Shown here one piece after another: positions 9,944 to 52,580 of a stretch of 64,000 bases of DNA. The stretch's first letter is position 1. Each line of letters begins with the position of its first letter. Origin of the DNA: Candidatus Sulfomarinibacteraceae bacterium (GTDB taxonomy: Bacteria; Acidobacteriota; Thermoanaerobaculia; Thermoanaerobaculales; Sulfomarinibacteraceae); the NCBI GenBank assembly GCA_963769215.1, contig CAVYKX010000029.1, positions 34,058 to 98,057 of the forward strand, given 5' to 3'. A model generated the notes under the pieces. That model saw only the letters and a program-made list of their open reading frames with translations. It ran no database searches and was not told the DNA's origin. The position numbers and the translations under genes are program-made.

Positions 9944-11129
9944 TCACCTTGAGTTCCTTGCCGACCCTTTCGAAGGCTGCCACAGCTCTGTCAAGGTGCT
10001 CTTTCTCGTGGGCAGCGGATATCTGAACCCGGATCCTCGCCTGATCCGCGAGGCACCACCGGGAAACTGAAGCCGATGACGTAAATACCCTCTTCGAGCA
10101 TTGCGTCCGCGACCTGAGATGGCGAGGCGAGCGTCGTAGAGCATCACCGGCACGATCGCAGTTTCGCCATCGAGAACGTCGTAGCCGACCTTCGAGAGCT
10201 TGTCGCGGAAGTACCGGGTGTTCTCCATGAGTTTGTCCCGGAGAGCTGTCGTTGAAGACAGCATTCGAAAAACCTCGAGGCCGGCTGCGGCCAGGGACGG
10301 TGTCAGCGTATTCGAAAAAAGATAGGGGCGCGATCGCTGGCGCAGCAGGTCGATGATCTCTCGCCGGCCCGTTGTGTAGCCTCCGGAAGCGCCGCCAAGG
10401 GCCTTGCCCAGGGTCGACGTGATGATATCGACGCGACCCTGCACGCCACAGTGTTCGGGCGTTCCGCGGCCGGTGCGGCCGATATAGCCGGTGGCGTGGG
10501 AGTCATCGACCATCACCATGGCGTTGTACCGATCCGCGAGATCGCAGATTTCGTCGAGCTTGACCAGGTAGCCGTCCATGGAGAAGACGCCATCGGTGGC
10601 GATCAATCGCCGCCGGTGGTCCTGCGTCTTCTTGAGGATCGCCTCGAGCTCGTCCATGTCGGAGTTGGTATAACGGTATCGTTCGGCTTTGCACAAGCGA
10701 ATACCGTCGATGATCGAGGCATGGTTGAGCTGGTCGGAGATGATCGCGTCCTCGGCGCCGAGGAGGGTCTCGAAGAGTCCCGCATTGGCGTCGAAACACG
10801 ACGAGTAGAGGATCGTGTCATCGGTCCCGTTGAACTCGGCTGATCACCTCCTCGAGCTCCTTGTGCAAATCCTGCGTTCCGCAGATGAACCGCACCGAAG
10901 CCATGCCGAAGCCTCGCTGGTCGAGGGCCTCTTTGGCTTTGGCGATGATCTCCTGATTGTCGGCCAGACCGAGGTAGTTGTTGGCGCAGAAGTTGAGCAC
11001 TTCGCCCTGAGGCACGCTGATCGCCGCGCTCTGCGGCGACGAGATAACGCGCTCCTGCTTAAAGGTTCCCGCCTCTCGGATTCCTTCAAGCTCATCGCGG
11101 AATCCCGCCCGAAAGGTGTCAAACATCAT
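9944..11129 (-). pseudogene. kbl: glycine C-acetyltransferase (2-amino-3-ketobutyrate CoA ligase), about 3 frame disruptions
   Basis: Close collinearity with E. coli Kbl ([61 protein letters not shown]). Shifts lie near 10820-10850, about 10125 and about 10040. The restored tail reads [34 protein letters not shown]. Confidence 0.85.
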
Positions 11130-11219
11130 CGACCTCCCTTGATGCCCGTGGCGGGCTCCATACGCCGTTCAGGGTCACCGGAACCTCAGGTTGCGGATCG
11201 ATACCGCCACTGGTTCGAT

Positions 11220-11564
11220 TCAGTTTGGATCAAAGCTCGCGACTGCTTCAGCCTCGTCGTCAAAGACTTCGAGCAGCGGCAACAACTGAGTCAATTTCAG
11301 CGTCCGCTCGACCTGGGGGGCCGGACGAAGCAGCTTGACGGACGCTCCGAATCGTCCCGCCAGTTTCCACCCGGACACCACCTCTCCGATACCGGAGCTG
11401 TCGATGATGGTGACTTTCCTCAGATTGAGGAGGATCTTCTTCCAATCCTCGGCCACCAGCTCATTCATCACATCTCGCAGGAGTTCATCCCCCACGCCCA
11501 TCACCAAACGCCCCTCGATATCAACAATGATGACGTCGTCCACGTGCCGTACATCGACTTTCAT
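11220..11564 (-). CDS. STAS-domain anti-sigma-factor antagonist (SpoIIAA-like)
   Basis: About 114 aa from MKVDVRHVDDVIIVDIEGRL.. with IIDSSGIGEVV phosphorylation-loop-like motif. The longer ORF upstream of Met45 runs through repeats. Confidence 0.7.
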   Translation of the reverse strand: MKVDVRHVDDVIIVDIEGRLVMGVGDELLRDVMNELVAEDWKKILLNLRKVTIIDSSGIGEVVSGWKLAGRFGASVKLLRPAPQVERTLKLTQLLPLLEVFDDEAEAVASFDPN

Positions 11565-11580
11565 GGGCGGTATTCTACCA

Positions 11581-11816
11581 TCCACCCTCCCACGCAGCCG
11601 CAAGATGCAGGATGCAAAGATCCGCCCCCCACCCAGGAGAAACCGCAGATAACGCAGATGAACGCAGATTGTCGGAATTACACCGGCAGGATCCATCCAC
11701 CCGGAAAAGGGTCGCGGTACCCCGGTTCTTCATCTCGAATCTCGAATCTCGAATCTCGAATCTTGTATCTTGAATCTCGTATCTTGAATCTTGTATCTGG
11801 TGGGGTGGGTGGGTGG
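11581..11816. repeat. composite box/microsatellite tract
   Basis: C-box; gcaagat/gcaggat units; C-box; three ACGCAGATnn decamers (11641-11672); about 9 heptamers gaatctc/gtatctt (11731-11798); G-box GGTGGGGTGGGTGGGTGG abutting the stop of the downstream gene. Confidence 0.85.
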
Positions 11817-13049
11817 CTATCTGGTTTGCACGGGGTTCAGACCGGTCTCGTCGGCTCGATAGACCTGGTTCCGGCCGCCCTGCTTGGCTCGGTACAGCGC
11901 TTCGTCGGCGACACGCAGCAGTTCCACGGAATCGAGGGCATCATCCGGGAAACACGCGACGCCCCCACTGATGGTCACTCGGCCCAGCGGCTGCGTTGCT
12001 TCACCCTCGAACGGGAACTCCTCGATCCGCTTGCGGACCATCCCGGCCGCCGTCATCGCCTGCACCCCGGAGCGTCCCGGCATCACGAGCAGAAACTCCT
12101 CGCCCCCAAACCGCCCGAAGACATCGTCCGTGCGGACTGTTTCTTTGACCAGCTTCGCCAGCTGCGCAAGCAGCGTGTCGCCCATCAGATGGCCGTTCGT
12201 GTCGTTATAGACCTTGAAGTTGTCAAGATCGAAGATGAAAACCGAAGCTTTACCGCCGGTTTTGCGCGCTTCGTGAATGGCCAGCCCGAGACGGCGCAGC
12301 AGGGCGCCCTTGTTGAAAATCCCGGTCAACTTGTCGACCTCGGCCTCGACCTCTTTTGCCCGATAGGCCTCCACGTTCTTCCACGTCAGCGCGCCGATGC
12401 GCGCGATCATCTCGAGAACATCGCGCTCGGTGTTGTGGTGGCGATCGGGACGCGAGACGGCGAGCACACCAAGCGTCTTCTCGCCAGCCACCATCGGGGC
12501 GATGATGTCGTACTTCGGTTCGGAACTGACTCGGGACCGTTCGTAGTTCCACATCTGGTCCTGCTCGAAATCCTTCCGCACCATCACCTGCTGTCGGTCG
12601 GCAACGATCCCGACCTGGCCCTCGCCAATGCGAAACTCCGCGCCCTCTCTCAACATGCCCCTGGTCGAATGGAGCGCGGCGACCGACAGGCGGTCGGCCT
12701 CGTCCGAATGCGAATCCGGAGTCGATCGTCGCACCAGAACGGCTGCGACCTCCGGGCGATAGATTCTGACCATCGCTTTGAGAAGCGCCTTTGGAATCAT
12801 GCGGACCTGGCGCTCTTTGTGCATTTCGCCGAGAAGCGATGCAAAGACCTGGAAAAATTCGCGCTGAAAATCGAGGTCGTTTTCGAGACGCCGGAATTTT
12901 CGGTCGGACGCCTCTCTGACTTCCTTGATTTCTTTTTCCGCCGCGCGTCGGGCCACGGAATTCCGAATCAGCAGCATCAGGACAGCCGCCAGCAGCAGGA
13001 CCAGGGCAGGCACCAAAAATAGAGCGATGCTGCCGAGGGGAGTGCTCAA
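11817..13049 (-). CDS. diguanylate cyclase (N-terminal TM helix, GAF-like domain, GGDEF domain)
   Basis: 410 aa. DKLTGIFNKGA.., FDLDNFKVYND, active-site GGEEF, RAKQGGRNQV. Confidence 0.85.
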   Translation of the reverse strand: MSTPLGSIALFLVPALVLLLAAVLMLLIRNSVARRAAEKEIKEVREASDRKFRRLENDLDFQREFFQVFASLLGEMHKERQVRMIPKALLKAMVRIYRPEVAAVLVRRSTPDSHSDEADRLSVAALHSTRGMLREGAEFRIGEGQVGIVADRQQVMVRKDFEQDQMWNYERSRVSSEPKYDIIAPMVAGEKTLGVLAVSRPDRHHNTERDVLEMIARIGALTWKNVEAYRAKEVEAEVDKLTGIFNKGALLRRLGLAIHEARKTGGKASVFIFDLDNFKVYNDTNGHLMGDTLLAQLAKLVKETVRTDDVFGRFGGEEFLLVMPGRSGVQAMTAAGMVRKRIEEFPFEGEATQPLGRVTISGGVACFPDDALDSVELLRVADEALYRAKQGGRNQVYRADETGLNPVQTR

Positions 13050-14215: not shown

Positions 14216-15328
<1,113 letters not shown>

Positions 15329-15350
15329 GAGAGTAACTATAGCGGGTCTC

Positions 15351-15493
15351 TCCCACCCACCCAGACGCCGGATGCCGGAGCGAATTCATCGATCGGCAGG
15401 TCCAGTTGTCAAGCAGATTCTGATCGTATCTGGTATCTGGGCGGACGGGTGGCTGGGCGGATCCGGTATCTGGGATCTGGGTGGGTGGCCGGG
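15351..15493. repeat. box + microsatellite tract
   Basis: CCCACCCACCCA; gccggat/gccggag units; gtatctg-type heptamers; G-boxes GCGGACGGGTGGCTGGGCGG and GTGGGTGGCCGGG. Confidence 0.8.
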
Positions 15494-15547
15494 TATACTG
15501 CACACGCGCGCAATCGAGCATTTTTTGCGCATATCAAAGGAGGGACA

Positions 15548-16882
15548 ATGACACGACGATCAACCATCCTGGCCCTGGTAGTGCTTGTCGGCCTCGCGGG
15601 AGGCTGTGCCAAACAGGACCAGACGACAACGGATCCGGCCGAAGAGGCCTTCGAGGCCCTGAGGACGGCATGGGGAGAAGCGGAGACGACCGAGGCGAAA
15701 GTTGCTCTCGCCGAGGGCTATCTCGCTGACTTCCCGGACACAGAACACAGCGGATCGATGGCTGGAGCCATCGTCTACTACCAGGGCCACGAGCTCGAGG
15801 ATCCCCAGGGCGCCTACGATGTGGTGTCTGCCGCCCTCGAGAAGATTGAAGATCCGGAGCAGCGTTTCACCGTAAGCATGGAGCTGCTGAGCCTCTCTGA
15901 CTCGGTGGATGTGCCTCTCGACGTAGCGAAGGTCGCGAGCGACCTCAGCGCGGTGCGAGCGTTGACGTACGGAGAGGCGCAACAAGTTGCTGAGACTGCA
16001 GCCGATCTCGAGGCGTGGTCAGTGGCCGGAGAGCACGCCGCCGCCGCGGCCGTTCTGGCAACCCCGGAGGCCTATCAGGCTGACTACCCGGACCGCGAGT
16101 TCTCCGACGATGAGTTGGCCGAGCGCGCGCAGCGCCGCAAAGCGGCGTCTCTCGCCTACGAAGGATGGGCGCTGTACAACCTCGGAGATACCGAGGCTGC
16201 GTTTTCCCGTTTCGCGGAGTCCAGCGACGCCGGCAGCGTTACCTATATGGGTTCGCCCATGAATCCCCTCAACATCTTCTGGGGCCGTGCTGCCCTGAAT
16301 GAGGGCGACAACGATACAGCCGTCAAACTGCTCGGCCTTGAGACCCTCTTTGGCGAGGATCCAGCCGGCGCCAAACCGTATCTTCGCGAGGCATACGTCG
16401 CCAAGAACGGCGACGAAGAAGGCTTTGACGAATTCATGTGGGCAACCCGCAACGAACTCGCGACTCCTGTCGACGACTTCGAGTTGCTCGACTATGAAGG
16501 CAACGCCCATCGTCTGTCCGACGCCAGTGGCAAGGTGACCCTGCTCGCATTCTGGTTCCCCACGTGAGGCGGCTGCCGCGTGGAGTTGCCACGCCTGCAA
16601 CCTCTGTACGAGAAGTACCGGGACCAGGGATTCGAGATCATTGCAGTTGACGGAAAGAACGACACCGAACGGGCCACCAAGTTCATCGAAGAAAACGGCC
16701 TCACCTACACCATGCTCGAAAATGCCGAGGGCGAAGACGAGATCGTGGGCAATGTCTTCAAGGTTCGCGGCTACCCGTCGTCGTTCCTGATCGATCGGGA
16801 AGGCAAGGTGATGTACTTCCACTTCGGATTCGAAGCCGGAGACGAGGAGCACCTCGAGGAGGAGATTCTGAGTCTCCTGTAG
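15548..16882 (+). CDS. TlpA/ResA-like thiol:disulfide oxidoreductase lipoprotein with in-frame TGA (candidate selenocysteine, U340) in a UGGC redox motif
   Basis: AGGAGG RBS before ATG 15548 and lipobox LAGGC. ORFs 14261..16567 and 16580..16882 are in the same frame, separated only by TGA 16565-16567. Read-through gives VTLLAFWFPT-U-GGCRVELPRLQPLYEKY, which matches the FWAxWCxxC thioredoxin-fold pattern. Confidence 0.7.
16574..16599 (+). promoter_or_regulatory. candidate bacterial SECIS hairpin
   Basis: Upper stem GCGUGG/CCACGC (16578-16583 and 16589-16594) with loop AGUUG. Lower 3 bp stem UGC/GCA across a small internal loop. The 17 nt upper stem-loop starts 10 nt after the UGA. Confidence 0.5.
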
Positions 16883-16883
16883 A

Positions 16884-16930
16884 AATTTCGGATTTCGGAT
16901 TTCGGATTTCGAATTTGCCCCCGCCCACCC
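16884..16930 (+). repeat. heptamer microsatellite (ATTTCGG)n + C-box
   Basis: aaatttcggatttcggatttcggatttcgaatttg followed by CCCCCGCCCACCC. Same subfamily as 17809, 46753 and 62637. Confidence 0.9.
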
Positions 16931-16947
16931 GGGCGGGGGTTGTTCTT
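16918..16947 (+). terminator. rho-independent terminator after the TlpA-like gene
   Basis: Perfect 9 bp GC stem CCCCCGCCC-accc-GGGCGGGGG followed by ttgttcttc. Confidence 0.6.
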
Positions 16948-17050
16948 CGGTACCCGCCCCGTCATTTCGTCATCTCAACTTTCAAACTTCCCGACGTTTC
17001 AACGTCAGGTTCATCCGGAATTGCATGAGATGAGCCGAAATATGGAGTGT

Positions 17051-17253: not shown

Positions 17254-17381
17254 GACGGCAGCGATGTCGCCACTTGGGAGCTCTCTTCGTAATTCTCTTC
17301 GATTTCACGGAATTCCGGATGAGCCCAAAGTTCTAACGGTCAATCGTTCCAACGTTGGTCATTCTGCGCGACAATGTGTCC

Positions 17382-17804
17382 ATGCTCAGGATCAACGATG
17401 ATGTCGCGATTGACGAGGACGAGCTCCGGTACGAGTTCGCACGCAGTTCGGGCCCGGGCGGGCAGAACGTCAACAAGGTAGAGACCAAGGTCCGTCTGCT
17501 CTTCGACCTTCGAAATTCCCGTTCGCTGAGCACCGCGCAGCGCGCCCGGATCGAAGAGCAGCTGGCGACGCGTATCACCAAGGACGGCGTTTTTTACGTC
17601 TCGTCCCAGCGCCACCGCACCCGCGAGGCCAACCGGAAAGCGACCATCGAGCGCTTCATCGATCTGCTCGCCGAAGCTCTGGCCGAGGAGGAACCACGGG
17701 TGCGCACGAGGATCCCCAGGAACCAGCGCAAACGCAGGCTCGAGACCAAAAAACGGCGGTCACGGAAAAAGGCGCTGCGATCACGACCGCGCGAGGAAGA
17801 CTGA
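17382..17804 (+). CDS. arfB: alternative ribosome-rescue factor ArfB (peptidyl-tRNA hydrolase, GGQ motif)
   Basis: MLRINDDVAIDEDELRYEFARSSGPGGQNVNKVETKV.. with a basic C-terminal tail, collinear with E. coli YaeJ/ArfB. ORF-track start 17355 is probably too far upstream. Confidence 0.85.
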   Translation: MLRINDDVAIDEDELRYEFARSSGPGGQNVNKVETKVRLLFDLRNSRSLSTAQRARIEEQLATRITKDGVFYVSSQRHRTREANRKATIERFIDLLAEALAEEEPRVRTRIPRNQRKRRLETKKRRSRKKALRSRPREED

Positions 17805-17808
17805 CCAG

Positions 17809-17897
17809 AATTTCGATTAATTTCGGATTTCGGATTTCCGCCCTCCCGCTCACCGGAACAAGGCTTGAGGCGTGAGGCCTGGGGCTTGTGGGGCTCC
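17809..17897 (+). repeat. heptamer microsatellite + C-box, then degenerate (GGCTTGR)5
   Basis: tttcgattaatttcggatttcggatttcc-GCCCTCCCGC, then ggcttgaggcgtgaggcctggggcttgtggggctc, related to the array at 48763-48903. Confidence 0.8.
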
Positions 17898-18204: not shown

Positions 18205-18442
18205 TTACTCGAGCTCCGAGAACGTCGACGACCCGCCCCGGAAACCGATCGAGACCCGTTCGTGATCGGCAACGACCGGCAGGCGGTGTTCCCAGCTCAG
18301 ATCCCGCAGGCGATCCATCTCCTGCGGCTCCCGGCTGAGGTTGATCTCCCGATAGGCGACGCCCCGGCGATCGAAATCTGCGCACAGCTCGCGGCAGTGG
18401 GGACAGCCGTCGGCGGTGAAGACGAGGATGGTGTCGAGGGAC

Positions 18443-18453
<11 letters not shown>
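18205..18453 (-). CDS. glutaredoxin-family small redox protein (CPHC)
   Basis: ILVFTADGCPHCRELCADFDRRGVAYREINL..LPVV.. is a glutaredoxin/NrdH-like fold. The start is uncertain (GTG 18453 proposed) because the upstream part of the ORF is made of repeat sequence. Confidence 0.6.
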
Positions 18454-18581
<128 letters not shown>

Positions 18582-18584
18582 CAT

Positions 18585-19530
18585 TCATCGATTCTCGCGA
18601 AGATCATCATAATGCCCGCTGAGATCAGCGGTGCCGGGTTCCATCTCGATCAAGACACTCGGGTCGTCCCGCCACCGCGGGTGGACTTTGACCCTGAGCC
18701 CGAGATAGATCCTGATACCGAGCACCCTCTCGAGCTCCTCACGGGCCGCCTGACCCACCGACCGGATCATGCTGCCCACCCTTGCCGATGACGATGCCCT
18801 TCTGGCTCTTCCGCTCGACGTAGATCACGGCCTCGACGTGGAGCAGGTCGCTCGCTCTCCTCGAAGAGATCGACGACCACGCCGGTTGTGTAGGGAGCTC
18901 GTTCCGCGTCCTCTCGAGCAGCTTTTCGCGAACCACTTCGGCAACAAAGAACCGTTCGGTCTGGGTCGTTGTAGGTCCGTGGGATACAGCGGCGGACCCT
19001 CGGGAAGGCGGCGCGAACAACTCACCCATGAGACCCGAGGCCGTCACCCTTGAGCGCCGAGATCGGGACAACGGGAGTATCGGCGCGGCGCTGCGAGTAG
19101 CGCTCGATGAGACGGCAGCAAGATCCCCCTTGGCGCTTGACGAGATCGATTTTGGTCAGCACCCCGACGACCGTCGGCCTGCACGGACTCGAGGAGCTCG
19201 AAGAGGATAGTCCTCGCCGCCACCCCACGGTTCCGACGCGTCGAGGAGGTGGAGCACGACGTCGACCTCTTCGAGGGCGGATCGCACTTCCTGCATCATC
19301 CGAGCATTCATCTTGTGCAGGGGTTTGTGGACTCCGGGCAGGTCGAAGAAGACCGCCTGGCCGCGCTCCTCGGAGAGGATGCCGACGATCCGGTTGCGGG
19401 TGGTCTGGGGTTTGTCGGAGACGATGGCGATCTTGTCGCCGATCAGCGCGTTGAGCAGCGTGCTCTTGCCGGCGTTCGGCCGGCCGACGAGGGCGACCAT
19501 GCCGGAGCGAAGGCCGTTCCCGCGATCCAT
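18585..19530 (-). pseudogene. era: GTPase Era, at least 3 frame disruptions
   Basis: N-terminal piece has [26 protein letters not shown]. The middle (TKIDLV) and KH-domain pieces (VREKLLERTRNELP, IVIGKGG, LGLRVKVHPRWRDD) lie in other frames (ORFs 19156-19530, 19022-19228, 18739-19071, 18585-18779). Confidence 0.85.
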
Positions 19531-20789
<1,259 letters not shown>

Positions 20790-20793
<4 letters not shown>

Positions 20794-21222
20794 GAAAACA
20801 TCTCCTCCCGCATCTGCAGCTCGAGTCGCGTTCATTTCTCCTCGATCTCTCGCATGATCATATCCGAGAAGATGGAGCATTCCATGAAGCACCAGCTCCT
20901 CGAGATCTCGCGGACCTCGCCATGACCCAGGCTCTTCAGCCTGCCGTCGGGCGGCGTCGAGCGAAATGACGATCTCGCCCAGCAGCACCCGACGCCGGAC
21001 GGCAGCTCGTCGCCGTCGGGAAACGACAGGACGTCGGTCGCTCGATCCTGCTCCGCGATAACGCCGGTTGAGCTCGCGAATCCGTTCATCCCCGGTGAAC
21101 AGAACATGGACCTCCGCAGCCTCGCCCGCAGTCGATCCAAGCAGCTTCGAAATCACCCGACGCAGCGCTTCAGCGGTTGGCTGGGACGGTCTTCTCTCCC
21201 ACCTGAAGTGGACCCGAGTCAG
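20790..21222 (-). pseudogene. ybeY: endoribonuclease YbeY, at least 2 frame disruptions; start uncertain
   Basis: ELNRRYRG / DRATDVLSFP (other frame) / HGMLHLLGYDH zinc motif. The likely true stop is a TGA overlapping the corC ATG (ATGA at 20790-20793) in a shifted frame. Confidence 0.75.
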
Positions 21223-23510
21223 CTTTCTCTGCCTCCGGTTGAAGTCGAAACCCGGATAGTCGATTCGGTGATGATACATGTTGGTCAGCACCCACAGAAA
21301 GGCCGACGCCACCTTGTCGAGCTCCGAAAACGTGAGTTCGCGAATCGTCGAGTTGATCGTCCTCGAGCGCGTTCGAAAAGATCCTGTCGATCATCGCCTG
21401 GATCTTGGTCGGCGTCGGGTTGTCGAGGTCCGCGCCGCCGCCTCCACCGCGTCGGCAAGCAGCAGGATGCCCATCTCCTTGGTGTTGGGGCTCGGTCCTG
21501 GGTAGCGGTAGTCGCTCTCGCGCACCTCCTGATTTCTCGGGTCGCTTTCTTTCCTGGGCCTTGTTGAAGAAGTAGCGAATCAGCTTGGTGCCGTGATGGG
21601 TGGCGATGGCCTGCCGGATCGGCAGCGGGAGCTTTGCCTCGCGGGCCATCTCCAGACCCTCTTTGACGTGACTCTGGATCACCAGGGCGGACATCGATGG
21701 CGCAAGAGCAGTCGTGCGGATTGCCGCCGCGCTGATTCTCGACGAAGTACTCCGGCTTCACCAGCTTGCCGACGTCGTGGTAGTAGGCGCACACCCGCAG
21801 CAGCAGGGCAGTTGGCGCCGACGGCGTCGGCGCCGGCCTCGGCGAGATTGCCGACCGCCAGCGAGTGTTGATAGGTGCCCGGCGCCTCCAGGGACAGGCG
21901 TTTGAGAAGCGGCAGGTTCTGGTTGCGAGAGCTCGAGCAGCCGGGTGTCGGTGGTGATCCCGAAAAGACTCTCGAGGACCGGAAGCAGGAAGGACACGAC
22001 GCCCACGCGACAGGAATCCGCCCACCATCGCGCAACCGGCAGCAAAGCAACACGATCGACGGAGTTTCCGGAAGGCCGCGATAAAGCCCAGAATCAGCAT
22101 CAGGGCCACGTTCGCTCCACCGACGATAACGCCCACGCGGCTCAGTGACGGCCCGGTCCTTGGAGCGTTCAGCGGCGAGGGTCGCCGACCATCCCGAGGC
22201 CAGAGCGTAGACCGCGATCGAGAAATCGCCCCCCAGCAACACCCCGGCAATGCCCGCTGTGCAAACCGCAAAAAGCAGCGCGGGCTGGAATCCCATGAGC
22301 ATCATCACGGTCGAGCGGGCCGGCGGCGAACGGCAGGCCCCAGAGGTACGCTTCCACGGTTGACATAGCAGGCCCCTGGGCATTGAATGCGATGGCATCG
22401 CAAGGTACAGACCCAGCCGATTCGCCAGGGCGAAGACCAGGACCAGGATGTAGATCATCGACAGGCGGCGCCGCGCTTCGACGGGCTGCTGAGGCGTTCA
22501 CCAGACGGCCACCACCCGAGGATCAGCAATGCGACAACCAAGCCTATCCCTGCAACTCTCGCCGTCGTCGCGGTGTCTTGCCGCTGCCGCTGAAAGACCC
22601 GCAGGGTTTCCGCCACCTCCTCGGTGACCGTATCCCCCCGCCGGACAAGAACCTGCCCGCGCCTGAGGTTGCGGGATCTCGGGACCACCTTCTCGGCGGC
22701 CGCGCGGGTCCGCTCGCCGGTTTCCGCACGATTAAAAACGAGATTGGGCGAAATATTGGCCTCGAGAAAATCCGACCGTCGTCTTGATCCATCGGCGCGC
22801 AACCGCCGGCTGCTCGAGAAGCCGTCGCCTGCAGCAACCTGCTCGAGACCCGAACGCACATCGATCACTGCGGAGAGTTCGTTCAGCAGAACCAGCCGTT
22901 CGGCGCCCGAGTCCAAATTCCGTAACGCCACGCCCCGCGTACGCCCGGCGCTCGAGGTCGCGGCGGTCATCGGCGATCCGATCCCTGAAGACCTGTGCTC
23001 ACCACCTCGACCAAAGCCGCTCGAGCCGATCAGAGCATGCCAGACGACTCGAGAATGCGGGCAATCGGATCCGGTATCGCGAAGATCGGTGATGGCGCCG
23101 AGGCTCGCGACCGCATCTTCACCGAACTCCAGTCGGTCCCGGCACGCCGCGAACAGGATCGTAGAACTCTTCTTCGAGCTCCATCTCGCAGACGCGGTTC
23201 GAGATCGTAGACCGGGATAACCGAATCGCGAGCCTCATTGCTCGCTGTCTCTGTCGCCGACTCATCGGGCAGCGTCAGGTCCGACGGGATCACGACGTCG
23301 AAGGTGGCGACATCACCCGGTTGCCAGTCCGGCGGGCCGCTGCCGAGTCGAGGCAGCAGCAAACCACGTACATCCCACGATCGTAATCACCGCCCACAGG
23401 ACGGTATGATCCAGAAGGCCGTCCCACCAGCCGGCGCTCTCCTCGAGACCCCGCTGGATGCGGGTGCCCGAGGCCTTCGCGTCACCCTTGGGAGAACCGT
23501 TGGATTTCAT
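21219..23510 (-). pseudogene. 7TM-receptor HD-domain phosphohydrolase (PgpH/YqfF family), many frame disruptions
   Basis: Collinear fragments in all three frames: N-terminal anchor MKSNG..VLWAVITIVG, extracellular part (GDVATFDVVIPSDL.., VIPVYD), 7TM region, HD domain ([21 protein letters not shown]), and C-terminus NMYHHRIDYP. Confidence 0.75.
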
Positions 23511-27118: not shown

Positions 27119-28474
27119 TTGAGCGAGGAATCCGGCGAGCGCGCCTTGATCCAGGAGCTGCACGCCCTGCTCCACGACGGGGAAGAGGATGCCCTGCAGA
27201 TCTTTCTGCAACTGGTGCGTCCGGAGGACATCGCCGACTGGCTCGATCTCCTGAACGTCGATGATCGCCAACGGATTGTCAGCGCTCTGGACCACGAAGC
27301 GGCGGGTACCGTCCTCACCGATACCACCGTCTCGATCCGCGCCGAACTCGTCGACGACATCGAGCCCGAGCGGCTCGCGCGAATTGCCGAGGCCCTCCCA
27401 GCTGATGAAGCGGCGGACCTCATCGGCGAGCTTGAAGTAGCCGACTCCGAACAGGTCCTCCACCACATCTCCGCCGAAGACGAAGAAATCCTGCGCACCC
27501 TCCTGACCTACCCGGAGGACACCGCCGGCGGCATCATGAACCCCGAAGTGGTGGCGATGCAGCCCGTCGACACCGTTGACGACGCCATCAGGTTTTTCCG
27601 GTCGGCCGACGAAGACACGGTGACCGCCGCGGTGTACGTCGTGGACGAGGACCATCGCCTGCAGGGATATGTTCGCCTCCGCAGCATGGTGACGGCGAGG
27701 CAGGCGGCGAGGCTCGGCGACATCATGTCGACTGACGTGATCTCGGTTGCCGTCGATGCCGACCAGGAAGAGGTCGCGGACCTCGTCGACAAGTACGACT
27801 TCATGGCGATACCCGTGGTCGATGCATTCAACCGGCTGCTGGGGGCGGTGACGGTAGACGACGTTCTCGACGTCATCGAGGAAGAAGCCACCGAGGACAT
27901 CTACAAGATGGCCGGTTCCTCAGCCGAGGAAGAGGAATCAGAGTCGATACTGCACGTCGCCCGGTATCGGCTCCCATGGCTTCTCGTCTGTTTGGCCGGC
28001 ACCCAACTCTCGTCGTTCGTGCTGGTTTTTGCGTCCCGCGAAGTCAACCTCTACGAACAGATGTCTGTGTTCACGGCAGCGATCATGGCGATGGCCGGCA
28101 ACACTTCACTTCAGTCGTCCACCACGACCGTGCGCCGCCTGGCTCTCGATACGCTCCCCCGGTCGCGCTTCCTGCGACACGTCTTTCGGGAGATCGCTGT
28201 AGCCCTGCTGATGGGCATCGTCTGCGGCGCGGTCGCCACGCTGCTGGCGATCCTGTTCCACAATAATCCGCTCATCGGACTCGCTCTCGGCCCGGCCATG
28301 GCAATCGGCATGTCGGCGGCGAGCATGCTTGGAACCGCCATGCCGATGGTCCTCGACCTTGCCGGCGTCGACCCCGCCGTTGCTTCGGGGCCACTGGTTT
28401 CCACCATCAACGACTCTCTCGCGCTTGCGGTCTACTTCTCGGTTGCAACCGGGATGCTCTTATGGATCGGTTGA
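27119..28474 (+). CDS. mgtE: magnesium transporter MgtE
   Basis: 451 aa. MgtE N-domain, CBS pair (IMNPEVVAM.., IPVVD..LLGAVTVDDVLDVIEEE), and 5-TM C-domain with conserved PLVSTINDSLAL-like segment. Confidence 0.9.
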   Translation: MSEESGERALIQELHALLHDGEEDALQIFLQLVRPEDIADWLDLLNVDDRQRIVSALDHEAAGTVLTDTTVSIRAELVDDIEPERLARIAEALPADEAADLIGELEVADSEQVLHHISAEDEEILRTLLTYPEDTAGGIMNPEVVAMQPVDTVDDAIRFFRSADEDTVTAAVYVVDEDHRLQGYVRLRSMVTARQAARLGDIMSTDVISVAVDADQEEVADLVDKYDFMAIPVVDAFNRLLGAVTVDDVLDVIEEEATEDIYKMAGSSAEEEESESILHVARYRLPWLLVCLAGTQLSSFVLVFASREVNLYEQMSVFTAAIMAMAGNTSLQSSTTTVRRLALDTLPRSRFLRHVFREIAVALLMGIVCGAVATLLAILFHNNPLIGLALGPAMAIGMSAASMLGTAMPMVLDLAGVDPAVASGPLVSTINDSLALAVYFSVATGMLLWIG

Positions 28475-28487
28475 CCGTCTCCGAGCA

Positions 28488-28523
28488 CAACGTTTCAACG
28501 TTTAAACGTTCAACGTTGCGTTC
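28488..28523. repeat. AACGTT octamer tandem repeat between convergent genes
   Basis: caacgtttcaacgtttaaacgttcaacgttgcgttc. Contains the 14 nt perfect palindrome aacgtttaaacgtt, bracketed by ccgagc/gctcgg. Confidence 0.8.
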
Positions 28524-29784
28524 AGACAGGCTCGGGATACCCGAAGAAATAGCCCTGCTGCAGCTCGATGCCGAGTTCCAGGAGGACCTCGGCCTCGGTT
28601 TCAGTCTCGACGCCCTCGGCGATCACGACCGATTGGCTCTCCCGTGCAAAGCCGATGATGGCGGACACCAGATTGCGCTTGATCGGCTCATCCGGCAGGT
28701 CGCGCACCAACATCTTGTCGAGCTTGATGAAATCGGGCTGAAGCTCCGCCAAGACGTGCAGCGAGCTGTACCCGGTCCCCATGTCGTCGATCGCTATACG
28801 GAATCCGTTCTTCCGCAGTTCGGCTACCCGTTCCCGCAAGCGACTCGCACTCTCGGCATAGGTTCTTTCCGTGATCTCGAGCACACACTCGGCTGGCGAT
28901 CGGCCCGCATCCTCGACCCGTCCAGTGAGCCCGCGGCTCTCCGACTCGATGAACTCGAGACCCAGCATCGAGAGGTTGATGAACAGAATCGCGCCGTCCG
29001 GCAGACCTGTGGCGTTCAGGAGCGCGCGATCAACGCACAACAGTTCGACTTCGCCCAAGGTTCCTGCACGTTCGGTGAAGCCGAACAGATTTTCTGCCGA
29101 CTCGAGATAACTGCCTTCCGGCCCACGACTCAGCGCCTCGAATCCGAGGGTTTCCCGATCGGGGACCTTGACGATCGGCTGGAATAGAGTGCGTACGGAA
29201 CCGTTCCGCAGGATCTTCCGAACCTCGTCCAGTCTCGCCTGGTCGAGCGCTTCACCACGGCGATGGAAGTCCTGGCGAGCTTCGAGAATTCCGTTGTAGA
29301 TGGTCCGCTCAACCCGCAGGGCGGGCCGCATCTTGATGACTCCCTGGCCCACCCGGACCGCAATCGACTCGCTTCCGCCGACATCATCGGTGATGGTGAT
29401 GCCTTCGACCAGTGTGTCGTGCAATCGCCCCGCTTCGAAATGGTCTCCGAGAATGACGAGAAAAATATCTCCGCGGACGTTTTCCTGACAGAGCAGGCCC
29501 CCGGAGCCCGCAGCTGCTTCGAGCAATCCGCTGAGGTGCCCCGCGACGCTGCGCAACACCGCGTCGTATCGCTCCCAGCCCACGATCCGCTCGAGGTTCT
29601 GCTCGTGCTCGATCCGGACCAGGAGCACCTGGAGCGCTCCACGCTCGTCCAACATGCGCCGTATCCGATCGATCACTACCGGAAGCGTAGGGAGCTTGGT
29701 CACCGGATCGAAGAGACTGGCGCGATACTGGAGGATTCTCGTCTGTAGCTCGACGGGGTCGGTAGGGGAAAACCTGTTATGCAA
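28522..29784 (-). CDS. c-di-GMP phosphodiesterase: degenerate GGDEF-like domain + EAL domain
   Basis: EALSRGP, LFINLS, EITER, DDMGTGYSSL, KLDK, AEGVETE, QGYFFGYP. Proposed TTG start at 29784 overlaps the response-regulator stop; the longer ORF to 29946 overlaps that gene. Confidence 0.8.
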   Translation of the reverse strand: MHNRFSPTDPVELQTRILQYRASLFDPVTKLPTLPVVIDRIRRMLDERGALQVLLVRIEHEQNLERIVGWERYDAVLRSVAGHLSGLLEAAAGSGGLLCQENVRGDIFLVILGDHFEAGRLHDTLVEGITITDDVGGSESIAVRVGQGVIKMRPALRVERTIYNGILEARQDFHRRGEALDQARLDEVRKILRNGSVRTLFQPIVKVPDRETLGFEALSRGPEGSYLESAENLFGFTERAGTLGEVELLCVDRALLNATGLPDGAILFINLSMLGLEFIESESRGLTGRVEDAGRSPAECVLEITERTYAESASRLRERVAELRKNGFRIAIDDMGTGYSSLHVLAELQPDFIKLDKMLVRDLPDEPIKRNLVSAIIGFARESQSVVIAEGVETETEAEVLLELGIELQQGYFFGYPEPV

Positions 29785-30166
29785 CGGTCTCACCTCGGGA
29801 TGCCGCCAGGAGCTGCCGAACCTGGCGCACGAGCTCGCGGGGTGAGAAGGGCTTGCAGATATAAGCGTTGGCTCCGAGCTGCAGGGTTCCGAGTTGGTCC
29901 TGATGTCCGCTGCGCGCGCTGACCACCAGTACCGGGACCGACGCACCTTTGGGATCGATCCTGAGAAGCTTGAGAAGTTCCATTCCGTCGAGGTCCGGCA
30001 TCATCAGGTCGAGCAGAACCAAATCGGGAGGATCGTCCAATAAGCGGGCGAGGGCGGAGCGCCCATCGGTATCCGTGTCCACCTCGAACCCGTCCGACTT
30101 CAAAATCGTCGCCAGCAGGTCCACCATGTCAGGTTCGTCATCAACCACGAAAACGCGCGCCATCAC
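29777..30166 (-). CDS. single-domain response regulator (CheY-like receiver)
   Basis: VFVVDDEPDM.., LVLLDLMMPDLDG (phospho-acceptor Asp), VLVVSA, YICKPFSP. Confidence 0.85.
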   Translation of the reverse strand: MMARVFVVDDEPDMVDLLATILKSDGFEVDTDTDGRSALARLLDDPPDLVLLDLMMPDLDGMELLKLLRIDPKGASVPVLVVSARSGHQDQLGTLQLGANAYICKPFSPRELVRQVRQLLAASRGETVA

Positions 30167-38856: not shown

Positions 38857-40086
38857 TTATCCGCCGAAATCGTCGAGCATGATGTTCTCGGGCTCGACGC
38901 CGAGGTCGAGGAGCATGTTGATGACCGCCTGGTTCATCATCGGCGGCCCGCACATGTAGTACTCGACGTCTTCGGGCGCCGGGTGGTCCTTGAGGTACTT
39001 GTCGAGCACCACCTGGTGGATGAAGCCGGTGTGGCCGTCCCAGTTGTCTTCGGGCAGCGGCTCCGAGAGCGCCAGGTGCCACTCGAAGTTGTCGTTCTCG
39101 GCCTGCGATGCGTCGAAGTCCTCCTCGTAGAACGCCTCGCGCAGGCTGCGGGCGCCGTACCAGAAGGAGACCTTGCGGTCGGTGTGGAGGCGCTTGAACT
39201 GGTCGAAGATGTGCGAGCGCATGGGCGCCATGCCGGCGCCGCCGCCGATGAAGACCATCTCGTTGTCGGTCTCCCGGGCAAAGAACTCGCCGAAGGGCCC
39301 GGAGATGGTGACCTCGTCGCCGGGCTTGAGGTTGAAGATGTAGGACGACATGATGCCCGGCGGCACATCCGGCATGTTCGGCGGCGGCGAGGCGATGCGG
39401 ACGTTGAGCATGATGATGCCCTTCTCCTCCGGGTAGTTGGCCATCGAGTAGGCGCGGCTGACCGGCTCGTCGACCTTCGAGACGAAGCGCCACAGGTCGA
39501 ACTTGTCCCAGTCCTCGCGGTACTCGTCCTCGATGTCGAAGTCCGTGTAGTCGCACGTCGTGCGGCGGGCACTCGATCTGGATGTAGCCGCCGGCGCGGA
39601 ACGGCACCTCTTCGCCCTCGGGCAGCTCGAGCACCAGCTCCTTGATGAAGGTGGCCACGTTGTGGTTCGAGCGCACCTGTGCAATGTCCACTTGCGGACG
39701 CTGAAGATCTCCGGCTCGATCTCGATCTTCATGTCCTGCTTGACCTTGACCTGGCAGGACAGCCGAGCACCCTCGCGGGCCTCGCCGCGGCTGATGTGCG
39801 ACGTCTCGGTCGGCAGCAGTGCGCCGCCGCCCTCGTGCACGTCGACCTTGCAGACCCCGCAGGTGCCCTTGCCGCCGCAGGCCGAGGGGATGAAGATCTT
39901 GCTGCGCCGAAAGCGTATTGAGCAGGGTGTCGCCGGCGGCCGTGACGATCGCCTTGTCGGGGTCGTCGTTGATGGTGATCGTCACGTCGCCCGACGGCAC
40001 CAGCTTCGCCTTGGCGACATGAGCACCACCACCAGGGCCACGATCACGACGACGAAGACGACAACTCCGAGGATGATAGTCAACAT
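38857..40086 (-). pseudogene. nqrF: Na+-translocating NADH:quinone oxidoreductase subunit F, at least 4 frame disruptions, all in the 5' ~560 nt
   Basis: TM anchor; 2Fe-2S region ([14 protein letters not shown] implied across frames); FAD/NAD domain intact from about 39540 ([38 protein letters not shown]). Confidence 0.85.
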
Positions 40087-40098
40087 CGATTCACCTAC

Positions 40099-40713
40099 CT
40101 ACAGCTGGATCCCGGCGAAGGCCATGAATCCGATGGCCATCAGCCCGGTGACGATGAAGGTGATGCCGAGACCGCGCAGGGCGGGCGGAACGTTGCAGTA
40201 GCGCATCTTCTCGCGGATCGCGGCCAGCGCGACGATGGCCAGCCGCAAGCCGATGCCCGAGCCGAAACCGAAGACCGCGCTCTCGCCCAGCGTGTAGTCG
40301 CGCTCCACCATGAAGAGCGACGCGCCGAGGATGGCGCAGTTGACCGCGATCAGCGGCAGGAAGACGCCGAGCGCCGCGTAGAGCTTCGGCGCGTATCGAT
40401 CGAGGGTCATCTCGACGATCTGCACCGACGCGGCGATGGTGCCGATGAACGCGAGGAACGCAGGAAGCAGAGATCGACGCCGGCAAGGCCCGGGCTGAGC
40501 CAGGTCAGCGCCCCTCCTTGAGGAGGTAGTTGTAGATGAGGTTGTTGAGCGGCGTGGTCACCGTCAGCACGAAGGTCACGGCAGCTCCGAGACCGAGCGC
40601 GGTGTCGACCTTCTTGGAACGGCCAGGAAGGAGCACATGCCCAGGAAGAAGGCCAGGGCCATGTTCTCGACGAAGATCGCTTTGACGGCGAGGCTGAGGT
40701 AGTGTTCGAGCAT
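40099..40713 (-). pseudogene. nqrE: Na+-NQR subunit E, at least 2 frame disruptions
   Basis: [32 protein letters not shown].. then ..[34 protein letters not shown].. in other frames. Confidence 0.8.
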
Positions 40714-40714
40714 C

Positions 40715-41341
40715 TCAGTCCTCCTCGCAGTTCGGGCTTCCAGGTGCGCAGGACCCAGATGAAGATTCCGATCAGGAAGAACGCACCCGGGGCGAGCACC
40801 ATCAGGCCGTTCGGCTGGTACCAGCCGCCTTCGGTGATCGAGCGGCAGGACCTGGACGCCGAAGAGCTTGCCGGAGCCGAGCAGCTCGCGGAAGAAGCCG
40901 ACGACGATCAGGATCAATGCTGTAGCCGAGGCCGTTGCCGAGGCCGTCGAGAAAACTCGCGCATCGGCGGGTTCTGCATCGCGAAGGCCTCGGCCCGGCC
41001 CATGACGATGCAGTTGGTGATGATCAGGCCGACAAAGACCGAGAGCTGCTTCGAGATGTCGAAGACGAAGGCCTTCAGGACCTGATCGGTGACGATCACC
41101 AGCGACGCGATGATCGTCAGCTGCACGATGATGCGGATCGACGGCGGGATCAGGTTGCGGATCGACCGACACCGAGAGATTCGACAGCGACAGCACGGCG
41201 ATCACCGCGATCGACATGACCACCGCGGTCTCCATCTTGGTCGTCACCGCCAGCGCCGAACAGATGCCCAGCACCTGGGCCGCGATCGGGTTGTCGTTGA
41301 ACAGGGGATCGAGAAGGGCGTCTCTTGTACTTGGTGTTCAT
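40715..41341 (-). pseudogene. nqrD: Na+-NQR subunit D, at least 3 frame disruptions
   Basis: MNTKYKR.., [65 protein letters not shown], in different frames. Confidence 0.8.
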
Positions 41342-42132
41342 GCGCTGCTCCCTTCCGCCCGGCAGCTTGCTCGAGGTACGGTCCGAAGCCGTTCTCGCCG
41401 AGCCAGAACTGCACGAGGTTGGTCACGCCGCGGCCGGTGAGCGTCGCGCCCGACAGGCCGTCGACCCGGTACGGGTCTTCGTCCGGCGGACCGGCCGCGC
41501 CCTTGATGACCTCGATCGCCGGCCGCCAGTTCTCGTCGAAGGCCTTGCGCCCCGGCCAGAGCGCCTTCCAGCTCGGGTTGTCGACTTCGCCGCCGAGCCC
41601 CGGCGTCTCGCCGTGCTCGTAGAAGGTGATGCCGACGATCGTCGTCGTGTCCGGCGCCAGCGCCAGAAAGCCGTAGAGCGTCGACCACAGGCCCTTGCCC
41701 TCGATCGGCAGGATGATCAGCTCGACCGCGCCGTCCTCGACCCGCTGGTAGACCAGCGCCTTGTTCGGGCAGACGCGTCAACCCGGCGTTGTTCTCCGGC
41801 GCCTCGCTGGCTCAGCGCCGGGTCCTTGGTCGCCTTGCGCTGGTCGTAACGTCGCGGCGTCCGACTCCAGTCGTCGTACTCGCCGGTCTCGAGATCGACG
41901 ATCTTGGCGACGATGTTGCTCTCGAAGAGCTGCCTCGACCTCTTGCGGCGGTTGCCGCCTGGCCCTCCTCGAGCAGACCCGCCACGACCAGGACCTTCTT
42001 CTGGCGGTCGAGGACCTTGTTCGGTCCTGGCGCTCGCTGCAGCGCCACCGCGGAGGTCGAAACCACGATCGAGCACACGAGGCAGACCGCGGCGGCGAAG
42101 CCGATGATGTAGCCGTTACTGTACGCTCGCAT
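41338..42132 (-). pseudogene. nqrC: Na+-NQR subunit C, at least 3 frame disruptions
   Basis: MRAYSNGYIIGFAAAVCLVCSIVVS.., KVLDRQKKVL, FMN-attachment region (SGATLTGRGV implied), NLVQFWLGENGFGPYL. ATGA overlap with nqrD. Confidence 0.8.
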
Positions 42133-42138
42133 TGCGCG

Positions 42139-43352
42139 CTACCTCCGCTTGATGTTCGCCTGCACAAAGAAGTGGTCGATGAGCGGCGCGAACATGTTCA
42201 TGAACAGGATCGCCAGCATCATGCCCTCGGGGTAGGCCGGGTTGACCACCCGGACCAGGATCACCATCACGCCGATGCCGAATCCGTAGATCAACTTGCC
42301 CTTCTCGGTGAAGGCCGAGGACACCGGATCGGTGGCCATGAAGACGGTGCCGAAGGCCCAGCCGCCGAGGACGATGTGCCACTAGAACGGCACGCCGAAC
42401 ATCGGGTTGGTGTCCGAGCCGACGAGTTGAGCAGGGTTGCCATGGCGACGGTGCCGACGGTGACGCCGACCATCGTCCGCCACGATCCGACCCGGGTGGC
42501 GATCAAGATGAACGCTCCGAGCAGGCACAGCGCCGCCGACGTCTCGCCCATCGAGCCCGGGATGAAGCCCAAGAAGGCCTGCCACCACAACTCGTTCGCC
42601 GAACTGGCCGAGCGCCGTCGAGCCGTCCGAGGCGGCCCGGGCCAGCAGGGTGGCGCCGGAGAACCCGTCGACGCCGGCGAAATCGGCAGCGATCCACGGC
42701 TTGTCGCCGGAGATCTCCGCCGGGTAGGCGAAGAACAGGAATGCGCGCGCCGTGAGCGCCGGGTTGAGGACGTTCATGCCGGTGCCGCCGAAGATCTCCT
42801 TGCCGATCAGCACGCCGAAGATCGCGCCCGACGCCACCTGCCACAGCGGGATCGTCGGCGGCAGGGTCAGCGGCAGCAGGAAGCCCGTCACGAAGAAGCC
42901 CTCGTTGATCTCGTGCTCGCGCACGCAACGCGAAGATGACCTCGACCGTCGCCGCCCGCTGCAAACGTGACCACGAAGATCGGGAGGAAGTAGAGCGCGC
43001 CGTGAACGAAGCAGGACCAGAAGTCCGGTGTGAAGCTCGAAACCCATGGCCTCGAACAGGCGCGTCTGCCAGGTGTTCAAGGGCTGGCGCTCCGGCCGCG
43101 ATCGCCCGCATGCGCCTGCAGGCCGGTGTTGTACATGGCGATAAAGACGATCGGGATCAATCCGGCGACGACCACCGTCATCATGCGCTTGAGATCGAGA
43201 CCGTCGCGCACGTGGGTCGTGCCGGCGGTGACCTTGTCTGGGGTGTAGAGCAGCGTGTCTACCGCTTCGAAGAGCGGATACAAGCGATCCAGCTTCCCAC
43301 CGGATTCAAAACGCTCTTCTTGCGTATCCAGGAAGTTGCGGAGGATTCGCAT
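42139..43352 (-). pseudogene. nqrB: Na+-NQR subunit B, at least 4 frame disruptions
   Basis: [89 protein letters not shown], in several frames. Confidence 0.8.
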
Positions 43353-46713: not shown

Positions 46714-47058
46714 CCACCCAACCGCCCGGATGCCGGATGCCGGATACCGGCCCATTTCGGATTTCGGATTTCGGATTTCCGCCCACCCTCCCGGTGGAGA
46801 AACCGCAGATCACGCAGATTGACGCAGATAACTCTGTCGGCAGAAAAGCGCGTTGACCGGAGGTGCCATCTTTTGCATTGTCCGAGCCTCAGCGTGCAAT
46901 CCGGCCCGGTCAACCGGTCGGTCAATGCTAAAGGTGGCTCCTTGGCGGGAAGCGCGCACACAGAAGAGCGCGAACAACTCGAGGAGCGCCACGCGAACCC
47001 CGTGAGTTTCCCGCGAGACTGGCACTCGACCGACTTATCGGGAACGGGATCGGGATCG
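46714..47058 (+). repeat. mosaic intergenic element, full copy E1
   Basis: Order: C-box, (GCCGGAT)3, (ATTTCGG)3-4, C-box GCCCACCCTCCC, three CGCAGATnn decamers, CAGAAAAGCGCG, V1 inverted-repeat arms (46859-46884 and 46919-46941), CAGAAGAGCGCG, GGAGCGCCA tail, (GGGATC) repeats. Confidence 0.85.
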
Positions 47059-48761: not shown

Positions 48762-48762
48762 A

Positions 48763-48949
48763 GGCCTGGGGCTTGAGGCTTGGGGCTTGAGGCTTGGGGC
48801 TTGAGGCTTGGGGCTTGGGCTGGGCTTGGGGCTTGAGGCTTGGGGCTTGAGGCTTGGGGCTTGAGGCTTGGGGCTTGAGGCTTGGGGCTTGAGGCTTGAG
48901 GGGATCAATGGGTGGGTGACATTCCGAATTCCGAATTCCGAATTCTCAC
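48763..48949. repeat. 14 bp (GGCTTGA+GGCTTGG) tandem array of about 9-10 units, G-box, (AATTCCG)n
   Basis: ggcttgaggcttgg repeated from directly after the pckA stop to about 48903 with one irregular unit (gggcttgggctggg). Then gggatcaatGGGTGGGTGac and attccgaattccgaattccgaattc. Confidence 0.9.
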
Positions 48950-52317: not shown

Positions 52318-52580
52318 ATTCGGAATATCCCACCCGCCCACCCGAGAGCGCCCACAGATCACCCAGATTGACCCAGACGACCCTGTTGCTCGCAGAAGAA
52401 CAGGCTGAACGGGCGTGCCATCCGCAGAAAAGCGCGTTCGGCGGAGGTGCCATCTTTTGCATTGTCCGAATCCAAACGTGCAAACGGGTACTGACCGCAG
52501 GTCGGTCAATGCGAAAGGTGGCTCCTTTGCGGGAAGCGCGTCCGCAGAAGAGATCGTTGAACTCGAAGCGCCAAGCCGCG
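52293..52580 (+). repeat. mosaic intergenic element, full copy E2
   Basis: (GGAATTC)n, C-box CCCACCCGCCCACCC, three CCCAGATnn-type decamers, CAGAAAAGCGCG, V1 arms (52443-52527), CGCAGAAGAG, GAAGCGCCAAGC tail. Confidence 0.85.

Follow-up and report, generated by a model that had tools for sequence, protein, structure and literature searches.

Thioredoxin-fold proteins with selenocysteine (Sec) in the first position of a UxxC active-site motif, among them Prx-like, TlpA-like and redoxin proteins, are long-established families of predicted selenoproteins, and fusions of these to unknown domains have been noted (PMC2398784; PMC9312934; PMC13188914); the literature thus upholds the view of them as an established class from which the original prediction for the DNA described here set out. 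Selenoproteins have also been recorded in Acidobacteria or Acidobacteriota (PMC1794560 Table 2; PMC12013277 Table 2; PMC13582414). Here we describe a gene at positions 15548-16882 (forward strand) of a stretch of 64,000 nucleotides, hereinafter the window, of contig CAVYKX010000029.1 (assembly GCA_963769215.1) from Candidatus Sulfomarinibacteraceae bacterium, a member of the Acidobacteriota, in which the in-frame UGA codon 16565-16567 is, with a probability that we put at roughly 0.88, decoded as the active-site Sec of an exported thiol-disulfide reductase. We infer that 15548-16882 is one gene, encoding a lipid-anchored, exported thiol-disulfide oxidoreductase with Sec as the catalytic nucleophile. 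It is apparently an uncurated member of the established UxxC TlpA/Prx-like selenoprotein class, the kind of which, in itself, would not surprise a specialist.

With the published UxxC selenoproteins, this gene shares the Pfam families PF00578, PF08534 and PF13905, the placement of Sec at the first position of UxxC, the existence of Cys homologues and the location of the selenocysteine insertion sequence (SECIS) within the coding region right after the UGA. Compared to these families, it adds an N-terminal domain of approximately 275-300 residues that resembles tetratricopeptide repeats (TPR) and a lipoprotein signal; Sec is dominant within the family defined by this N-terminal domain (about 134 Sec-type versus 5 Cys-type representatives listed), and the SECIS hardly varies in sequence from phylum to phylum. 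It may nevertheless be one of the families already listed, for which MGB1650493.1, HEU0032618.1 and WP_010940744.1 are published examples, with 'Redoxin family protein' and 'Thiol-disulfide isomerase-like protein' as the candidates. Another described family, the ResA-like selenoprotein NF041054, has a similar ResA/TlpA-like fold with an active-site Sec, but its motif is U-G-C (UxC) after WAxx as opposed to FWFPT-U-G-G-C (UxxC) here; because the protein scores 42.6 bits against a cut-off of 300 and the WAxxUGC motif is absent, it is not a member of that family. The Cys-based proteins ResA of Bacillus, TlpA of Bradyrhizobium and DsbE/CcmG have in common with it the fold, the W-x-x-C-x-x-C context and the extracytoplasmic location (predicted in the present case), whereas the nucleophile here would be Sec, a TPR-like N-terminal domain is present and the anchor would be a lipid rather than a transmembrane helix.

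The reading frame from the ATG at 15548 begins MTRRSTILALVVLVGLAGGC and runs to GKVTLLAFWFPT (...LLAFWFPT), where it reaches the TGA at 16565-16567 (codon 340); beyond this codon, the unchanged frame gives GGCRVELPRLQPLYEKY (GGCRVELPRLQ...) up to the TAG at 16880-16882. As the prediction had it, the two entries of the open reading frame (ORF) list, 14261..16567 and 16580..16882, lie in one frame with the TGA alone between them. ORFs of the window end in an ordinary TGA more often than in any other stop, so the genetic code is not reassigned. The elements of the gene are as follows.

15537..15543, + strand: Shine-Dalgarno-like AAGGAGG, 4 nt upstream of the ATG at 15548, recognised by reading the sequence

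15548..16882, + strand: complete candidate selenoprotein gene, derived by translation, with 444 codons, predicted Sec at codon 340 and the stop codon TAG at 16880-16882

16565..16567, + strand: UGA, predicted selenocysteine U340, at the nucleophilic first position of U-G-G-C; TGA in 64 of 64 sequences

16574..16576, + strand: TGC, putative resolving cysteine C343; Cys in 64 of 64 sequences, encoded by TGC in 49 and by TGT in 15

The conservation of this arrangement in relatives directly shows a single frame across the UGA. Among the 231 relatives retrieved in a protein search with the joined sequence, the best 120 share 63-100% identity with it (the 100% match is the product of the window itself), and every one terminates in FWFPT or FWVPT, with lengths of 337-343 residues in nearly all cases; an alignment of 25 relatives confirmed this ending. 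A scan of one genome per species yielded 64 loci, with 18-72% identity in the N-terminal domain, from metagenome-assembled genomes labelled Thermoanaerobaculia/Sulfomarinibacteraceae, Holophagae, Krumholzibacteriia, Latescibacteria, Gemmatimonadota, Fibrobacteraceae and Glassbacteria. In this motif-biased set, TGA directly follows LLAFWFPT in each of the 63 loci that extend to this position, and in all 63, the TGA is followed by in-frame x-x-C-R-V-E-L-P, a conserved domain of about 100 residues and a stop. The cysteine that intervenes between the TGA and the GTG at 16580 is invariant as an amino acid but synonymously variable, and therefore is translated. When the thioredoxin domain alone was used as the query, the best 120 matches were fragments of 92 or 100 residues, all but one of which start with M/VELPRLQ, which corresponds to the downstream part of the gene as delimited by gene callers; at NCBI, the halves are named 'hypothetical protein' or 'peroxiredoxin family protein' (338 residues) and 'peroxiredoxin' (fragments of 100 residues). 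Second copies of the gene were observed in two loci (L039, ~10965-11280, and L045, ~2038-2350), with the TGA and the SECIS kept and the thioredoxin domain frameshifted; these are either decaying paralogues or assembly indels.

The position of the UGA was anticipated to be that of the nucleophilic Cys of a TlpA-like CXXC motif, and both structures and full-length relatives agree with this expectation. In phmmer alignments with PDB sequences, the UGA of FWFPT-U-GGC coincides with the first Cys of CxxC in 3gl3 (DsbE-like, 5.6e-23), 2l5o (FWFPsCpgC) and 4nmu (ResA); 1st9 (B. subtilis ResA) and 1jfu (TlpA) were also among the matches. An exhaustive search with a profile of the N-terminal domain returned 344 clusters at E <= 1e-3; among the 150 of these that were listed, about 134 end exactly at the UGA site, about 11 are fragments and 5 are full-length proteins with Cys, so that Sec-type endings account for about 134 of the 139 complete cluster representatives among the matches listed. 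In most selenoprotein families, Cys forms outnumber Sec forms, the opposite of the proportions seen here. The five Cys forms, of 432-470 residues, have the same two-domain architecture and the motifs CGPC, CIGC and CAFC, in contexts such as FWFPT-CGPC-RVELP and FWYPT-CIGC-RVELP, with the Cys aligned at position 340. A UGA exactly at the catalytic Cys, together with Cys there in relatives, is the signature of Sec/Cys exchange.

The second line of evidence for Sec decoding comes from a hairpin immediately downstream of the UGA, which consists of the following parts.

16578..16594, + strand: candidate SECIS core, a 6-bp stem of GCGUGG (16578-83) and CCACGC (16589-94) with the apical loop AGUUG (16584-88)

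16571..16602, + strand: possible lower stem, 16571-16576 with 16597-16602; about 81% of the cells are paired, and many sequences are mismatched

The original prediction placed a 17-nt hairpin 10 nt past the UGA and extended it by a lower stem of 3 bp (UGC/GCA); the former is borne out, whereas the latter is possible at best, given the proportion of paired cells just cited. In a gap-free alignment of 64 sequences from the TGA to +57, the 6-bp core stem was the sole helix predicted by RNAalifold, with pairing in all 384 cells, compensatory double changes at 3 of the 6 pairs (10 cells) and no pair broken. These compensations include GCGCGG with CCGCG[CU] in L034, L037 and L052, UCGUGG with CCACGA in L049, UUGCGG with CCGCAA in L060, and GUGUGG with CCACAC or CCAUAC in L061, L062 and L064. 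The loop bases AGUU are invariant in the 64 sequences, the fifth loop base alone being variable. The codons within the hairpin are similarly frozen: the Val codon is GTG in 60 of 60 cases versus 34% in the rest of these genes, the Leu codon is TTG or TTA in 62 of 62 versus a background of 8%, and the Pro codon is CCA in 60 of 64, again versus 8%, the four CCG exceptions being sequences in which the opposite codon is changed to GCG. Synonyms are used freely at conserved codons nearby, such as Leu -8, Leu -7, Ala -6 and Thr -1. The Cys forms provide a natural control: four of these genes encode CRVELP with GTT or GTC, CTG or CTT, and CCG codons, and the equivalents of the 17-mer fold with only -0.6 to -5.2 kcal/mol, compared to -9.0 kcal/mol in the window. 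Taken together, the pairing, the covariation, the frozen codons and the Cys-form control show that the RNA hairpin is under selection at the RNA level and is tied to the UGA forms.

The SECIS of E. coli fdhF, the minimal form of which is a 17-nt upper stem-loop, was invoked as a precedent in the prediction. The resemblance holds for the position and for the G-U of the loop, both elements being short, GC-rich hairpins located some 10-11 nt past the UGA with G-U in a small apical loop; the fdhF element differs in that it has the loop GGUC and a bulged U in the stem, whereas the loop here is AGUUG and there is no bulged U. The hairpin does conform to the published model of the bacterial SECIS (bSECIS), which calls for a loop of 3-9 nt with G within the first two positions, then G/U, an upper stem of 4-16 bp, a UGA-to-loop distance of 16-37 nt, and a minimum free energy (MFE) of no more than -7.5 kcal/mol (PMC13188914 Fig. 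2 legend). All these constraints accommodate the 5-nt loop AGUUG, the 6-bp stem, the spacing of 16 nt (16568-16583) and the MFE of -9.0 kcal/mol for the core alone (-19.5 kcal/mol for 46 nt). The published model and the covariation both support the hairpin. When the upstream CCACG (16560-64) was included in folding of the window sequence, the MFE structure paired it with GCGUGG. This alternative helix was rejected: the Thr codon varies (ACG, ACC, ACT), and the U->C change in the stem of L034, L037 and L052 is compensated downstream, never upstream.

The protein encoded by the joined frame is predicted to consist of three parts.

15548..15607, + strand: predicted signal peptide and lipobox L-A-G-G-C, with Cys20 predicted to be lipidated; C20 is invariant in 25 homologues

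15635..16459, + strand: TPR-like N-terminal domain, all-helical in AlphaFold models, approximately residues 30-304

16466..16852, + strand: TlpA/ResA/DsbE-type thioredoxin-fold domain, residues 307-435, assigned by Pfam, NCBIfam and PDB matches

With U replaced by C in the joined protein, the Pfam family AhpC-TSA matched residues 307-435 at 2.5e-20 (73 bits, cut-off 26), and Redoxin (58.8 bits, cut-off 26.6) and Thioredoxin_8 matched the same region. The top NCBIfam matches, namely, ResA (82.2 bits versus 170), TlpA (48.4 versus 230) and DsbE (45.6 versus 123), all fall below their cut-offs. Judging by these profile matches, the putative selenoprotein belongs to the TlpA/Prx-like superfamily and to no curated NCBIfam family. 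The AlphaFold model of a full-length Cys-form relative (predicted local distance difference test score, pLDDT, 95; predicted template modelling score, pTM, 0.89) shows fifteen helices followed by a thioredoxin fold, and Foldseek aligned it to 3gl3, 4nmu and 1st9 with target TM-scores of 0.83-0.91. The N-terminal fragment encoded in the window (residues 1-339; pLDDT 86) gave Foldseek matches to generic TPR superhelices only (E ~1e-3, TM 0.3-0.44), so no specific function of this domain follows; relatives carry the JGI label 'TPR repeat protein'. The helical N-terminal lipoprotein domain fused to a TlpA-like domain that had been proposed is thus recognisable in the lipobox and in the all-helical model. 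The lipobox itself is plainly present, and an extracytoplasmic location is predicted from the signal peptide and lipobox pattern, with Cys20 invariant. The N-terminus MTRRSTIL (15548-15571) resembles a twin-arginine (Tat) motif; many relatives have RK, not RR.

Several observations weigh against decoding of the UGA as Sec. When the window sequence is folded singly, the result is not significant (z = -0.68 for 16560-16625 and -1.64 for 16565-16610), and the case for the hairpin accordingly rests on the comparison of 64 sequences, in which it is far beyond chance. No Rfam family matched the hairpin, either when the window was scanned at the gathering score or when 16400-16800 was scanned permissively (E <= 10). 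The loci were retrieved with two peptide patterns, one of them LLAFWFPT, so that the set is biased towards this motif, though not towards TGA over TGC; the base-level quality of the window assembly is imperfect, as judged from apparent frameshifts in other genes. None of selA, selB and selD is present among the long ORFs of the window, and tblastn with E. coli SelA, SelB and SelD, the queries being verified against PDB sequences, detected none in the window and the 64 loci (1.03 Mb, with no more than 10 kb on each side). ARAGORN detected no tRNA of any kind in the window, and its scan of 60 related loci yielded tRNA-Cys and two tRNA-Arg only; tRNA-Sec was thus absent from both. Finally, three screens, for an in-frame TGA coding signal in the window, for conserved in-frame TGA across loci and for SECIS-like hairpins, recovered only the gene under study and no second selenoprotein gene in the window or the loci. 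Because the search covered the window and approximately 1 Mb of related flanks and produced no sel genes, a Sec-decoding trait of the lineage, which the prediction took the gene to imply, would follow from the gene itself, with indirect support from the selenoproteins on record in the phylum.

Candidates for this machinery were sought among ten proteins of the window matched in length to SelA, SelB or SelD and were rejected, as NCBIfam assigned other functions (solute symporter, EAL phosphodiesterase, NqrA, MgtE, FeoB, NqrF, PanE-like and NagZ-like) and two had no match. A glutaredoxin-like gene (18205-18588, - strand), located about 1.3 kb from the candidate selenoprotein gene, encodes a CPHC motif and the C-terminus GFRGGSSTFSELE, followed by TAA; its score on the NCBIfam model NF041212, 'Uxx-star family glutaredoxin-like (seleno)protein', is 63.5 bits, below the cut-off of 66. 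As it contains no TGA, it is a Sec-less relative of a selenoprotein family, and we rejected it as evidence of Sec use.

Among the alternatives to Sec decoding, the one that survives best, improbable as we consider it, is read-through without selenium, whereby the hairpin would help a near-cognate or suppressor tRNA (Trp, Cys or Gly) to decode the UGA and residue 340 would not be Sec. The comparative results as such show only translation through the UGA and a selected hairpin and do not identify the inserted residue, and the Sec machinery was not found in the sequences searched, both of which this scenario accommodates. What it leaves unexplained is that the UGA sits at the catalytic Cys of CxxC, where the Cys-form relatives carry Cys and where Trp or Gly would inactivate the enzyme; in addition, the hairpin fits all bSECIS constraints including the loop G-U and the spacing (PMC13188914), selenoproteins of the UxxC thioredoxin-fold type are common, and the use of Sec is known from Acidobacteria (PMC1794560, PMC12013277).

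Even less probable is the existence of two genes, one for a lipoprotein of 339 residues that ends at the TGA and the other for a protein of 100 residues that starts at GTG 16580, with the hairpin coupling their translation or stabilising the mRNA. In its favour, all the relatives seen are annotated in this way by gene callers and at NCBI, and a GAGG is located 10 nt upstream of the GTG. Neither half, however, amounts to a complete fold: in keeping with the original claim that the halves make no sense alone, the first breaks off within strand beta-1 and the active-site loop, and CxxC is missing from the second. Moreover, all 64 sequences keep in frame the four codons that separate the TGA from the GTG, including the invariant Cys with its synonymous variation, five relatives are fused through a Cys codon, and the Cys form is modelled as one compact two-domain protein with a pTM of 0.89. 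A true stop followed by an independent gene was seen in none of the relatives, and the scan for terminators revealed no terminator-like site separating the TGA from the remainder of the gene. The possibility that the true codon is TGC or TGT, obscured by a sequencing or assembly error, or that the gene is a pseudogene, is negligible in our view despite the frameshifts in nqrF and two other genes of the window, because TGA and the in-frame domain recur across relatives (63 of 63 related loci in several phyla, each an independent assembly, and over 130 protein clusters), purifying selection acts on the downstream domain, and the errors elsewhere in the window are indels, not substitutions.

Under Sec decoding, the UGA at 16565-16567 would not be read as a stop, and the hairpin at 16578-16594 would act as a bacterial SECIS, the apical loop of which, 16 nt past the UGA, would expose the invariant G-U. 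The complex of SelB, GTP and Sec-tRNA(Sec) would bind the hairpin and bring Sec to the A site, resulting in a protein of 444 residues with the active site FWFPT-U-G-G-C. After export and lipidation of Cys20, the TlpA/ResA/DsbE-type domain would be active outside the cytoplasm. By analogy with what is known of the family, U340 would attack a substrate disulfide or oxidised thiol, C343 would resolve the mixed selenenylsulfide, giving an intramolecular Se-S bond, and a CcdA/DsbD-type electron shuttle in the membrane would reduce this bond again. The TPR-like solenoid of approximately 275 residues probably holds a substrate or a partner protein. We infer, then, Sec rather than another amino acid at position 340, as well as SelB binding, the catalytic cycle, the electron donor and the substrate, whereas the Sec/Cys pair and the thioredoxin fold are directly apparent from the comparisons described above.

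The genomic context of the gene is partly conserved. The gene mtnA (14216-15328, - strand) lies upstream of the candidate selenoprotein gene in 34 related loci, and arfB (17355-17804, + strand; 145.6 bits versus a cut-off of 100), which encodes an alternative ribosome-rescue peptidyl-tRNA hydrolase, is directly downstream in 36 loci, both being housekeeping genes; that the arfB linkage relates to inefficient decoding of the UGA is pure speculation. In the conserved flanking clusters, of which only mtnA and arfB are named, no CcdA/DsbD, ccm/res or cytochrome-maturation neighbour was recognised. The transcription unit appears to end as follows.

16885..16950, + strand: 3' end of the transcription unit, with a heptamer array of ATTTCGG x4.6 (Tandem Repeats Finder), followed by a terminator-like GC hairpin at 16917-16940 and a T-rich tail (terminator scan)

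Tandem arrays of 7-nt units occupy many gaps between ORFs of the window, often just before a GC-rich terminator-like hairpin, the units being ATTTCGG, AATTCGG, AATTCCG, ATCTCGA, AGGCTTG (x20) and GGATTTC and the sites including 16885-16916, 17820-17838, 18468-18500, 18548-18579, 11732-11798, 46754-46779, 48762-48901, 52295-52326 and 62638-62665. Similar repeats are found 3' of the gene in many related loci, where translation past the stop gives KISNF, RISNF or EFGIR.

Other parts of the window include nqrA (43352-44734) and nqrF (38857-39840, - strand) of the Na+-translocating NADH:quinone reductase, probably the ends of an nqr operon (38857-44734, - strand), with an unusually high G+C content at third codon positions (0.93-0.94). 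The nqrF region (38857-40200, - strand) contains at least two apparent frameshifts, and two further genes, at 18740-20543 and 21171-23363 (both - strand), are split into four ORFs each, their relatives being intact with median lengths of 329 and 775 residues, respectively; this pattern suggests assembly indel errors, perhaps of long reads, or recent pseudogenes. The window also carries feoB (60240-62159, - strand), mgtE (27119-28474, + strand) and genes of cyclic di-GMP metabolism with GGDEF (11817-13049) and EAL (28522-29946) domains.

What is particular about this gene is the TPR-like lipoprotein architecture, the dominance of Sec, the breadth across phyla combined with a near-invariant SECIS, and the split annotation. 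We propose only tentatively, considering it possible but on balance doubtful, that it represents an uncatalogued selenoprotein family in which a TPR-like solenoid lipoprotein is joined to a U-G-G-C TlpA-like domain, which spans at least six phylum-level lineages (by record titles, Acidobacteriota, Gemmatimonadota, Fibrobacterota and the candidate lineages Krumholzibacteriia, Latescibacteria and Glassbacteria) and in which Sec is the default (at least 96% of complete cluster representatives) and the SECIS core is near-identical. If this is the case, the 17-nt core would be among the most conserved bacterial SECIS elements, and the gene would serve as a genomic marker of the Sec trait in poorly known lineages. 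Every public copy seen, including those from the NCBI Prokaryotic Genome Annotation Pipeline (PGAP), is split, and a curated model with a Sec exception would mend several hundred protein clusters. The near-invariant hairpin, with its compensatory changes and the natural control of the Cys forms, makes a compact test case for the recognition of SECIS by SelB. For the Thermoanaerobaculia/Sulfomarinibacteraceae and other sediment lineages, the gene implies Sec decoding and an extracytoplasmic, selenol-based reductase, and so would have a bearing on the selenium demand and the redox physiology of uncultured sediment bacteria.

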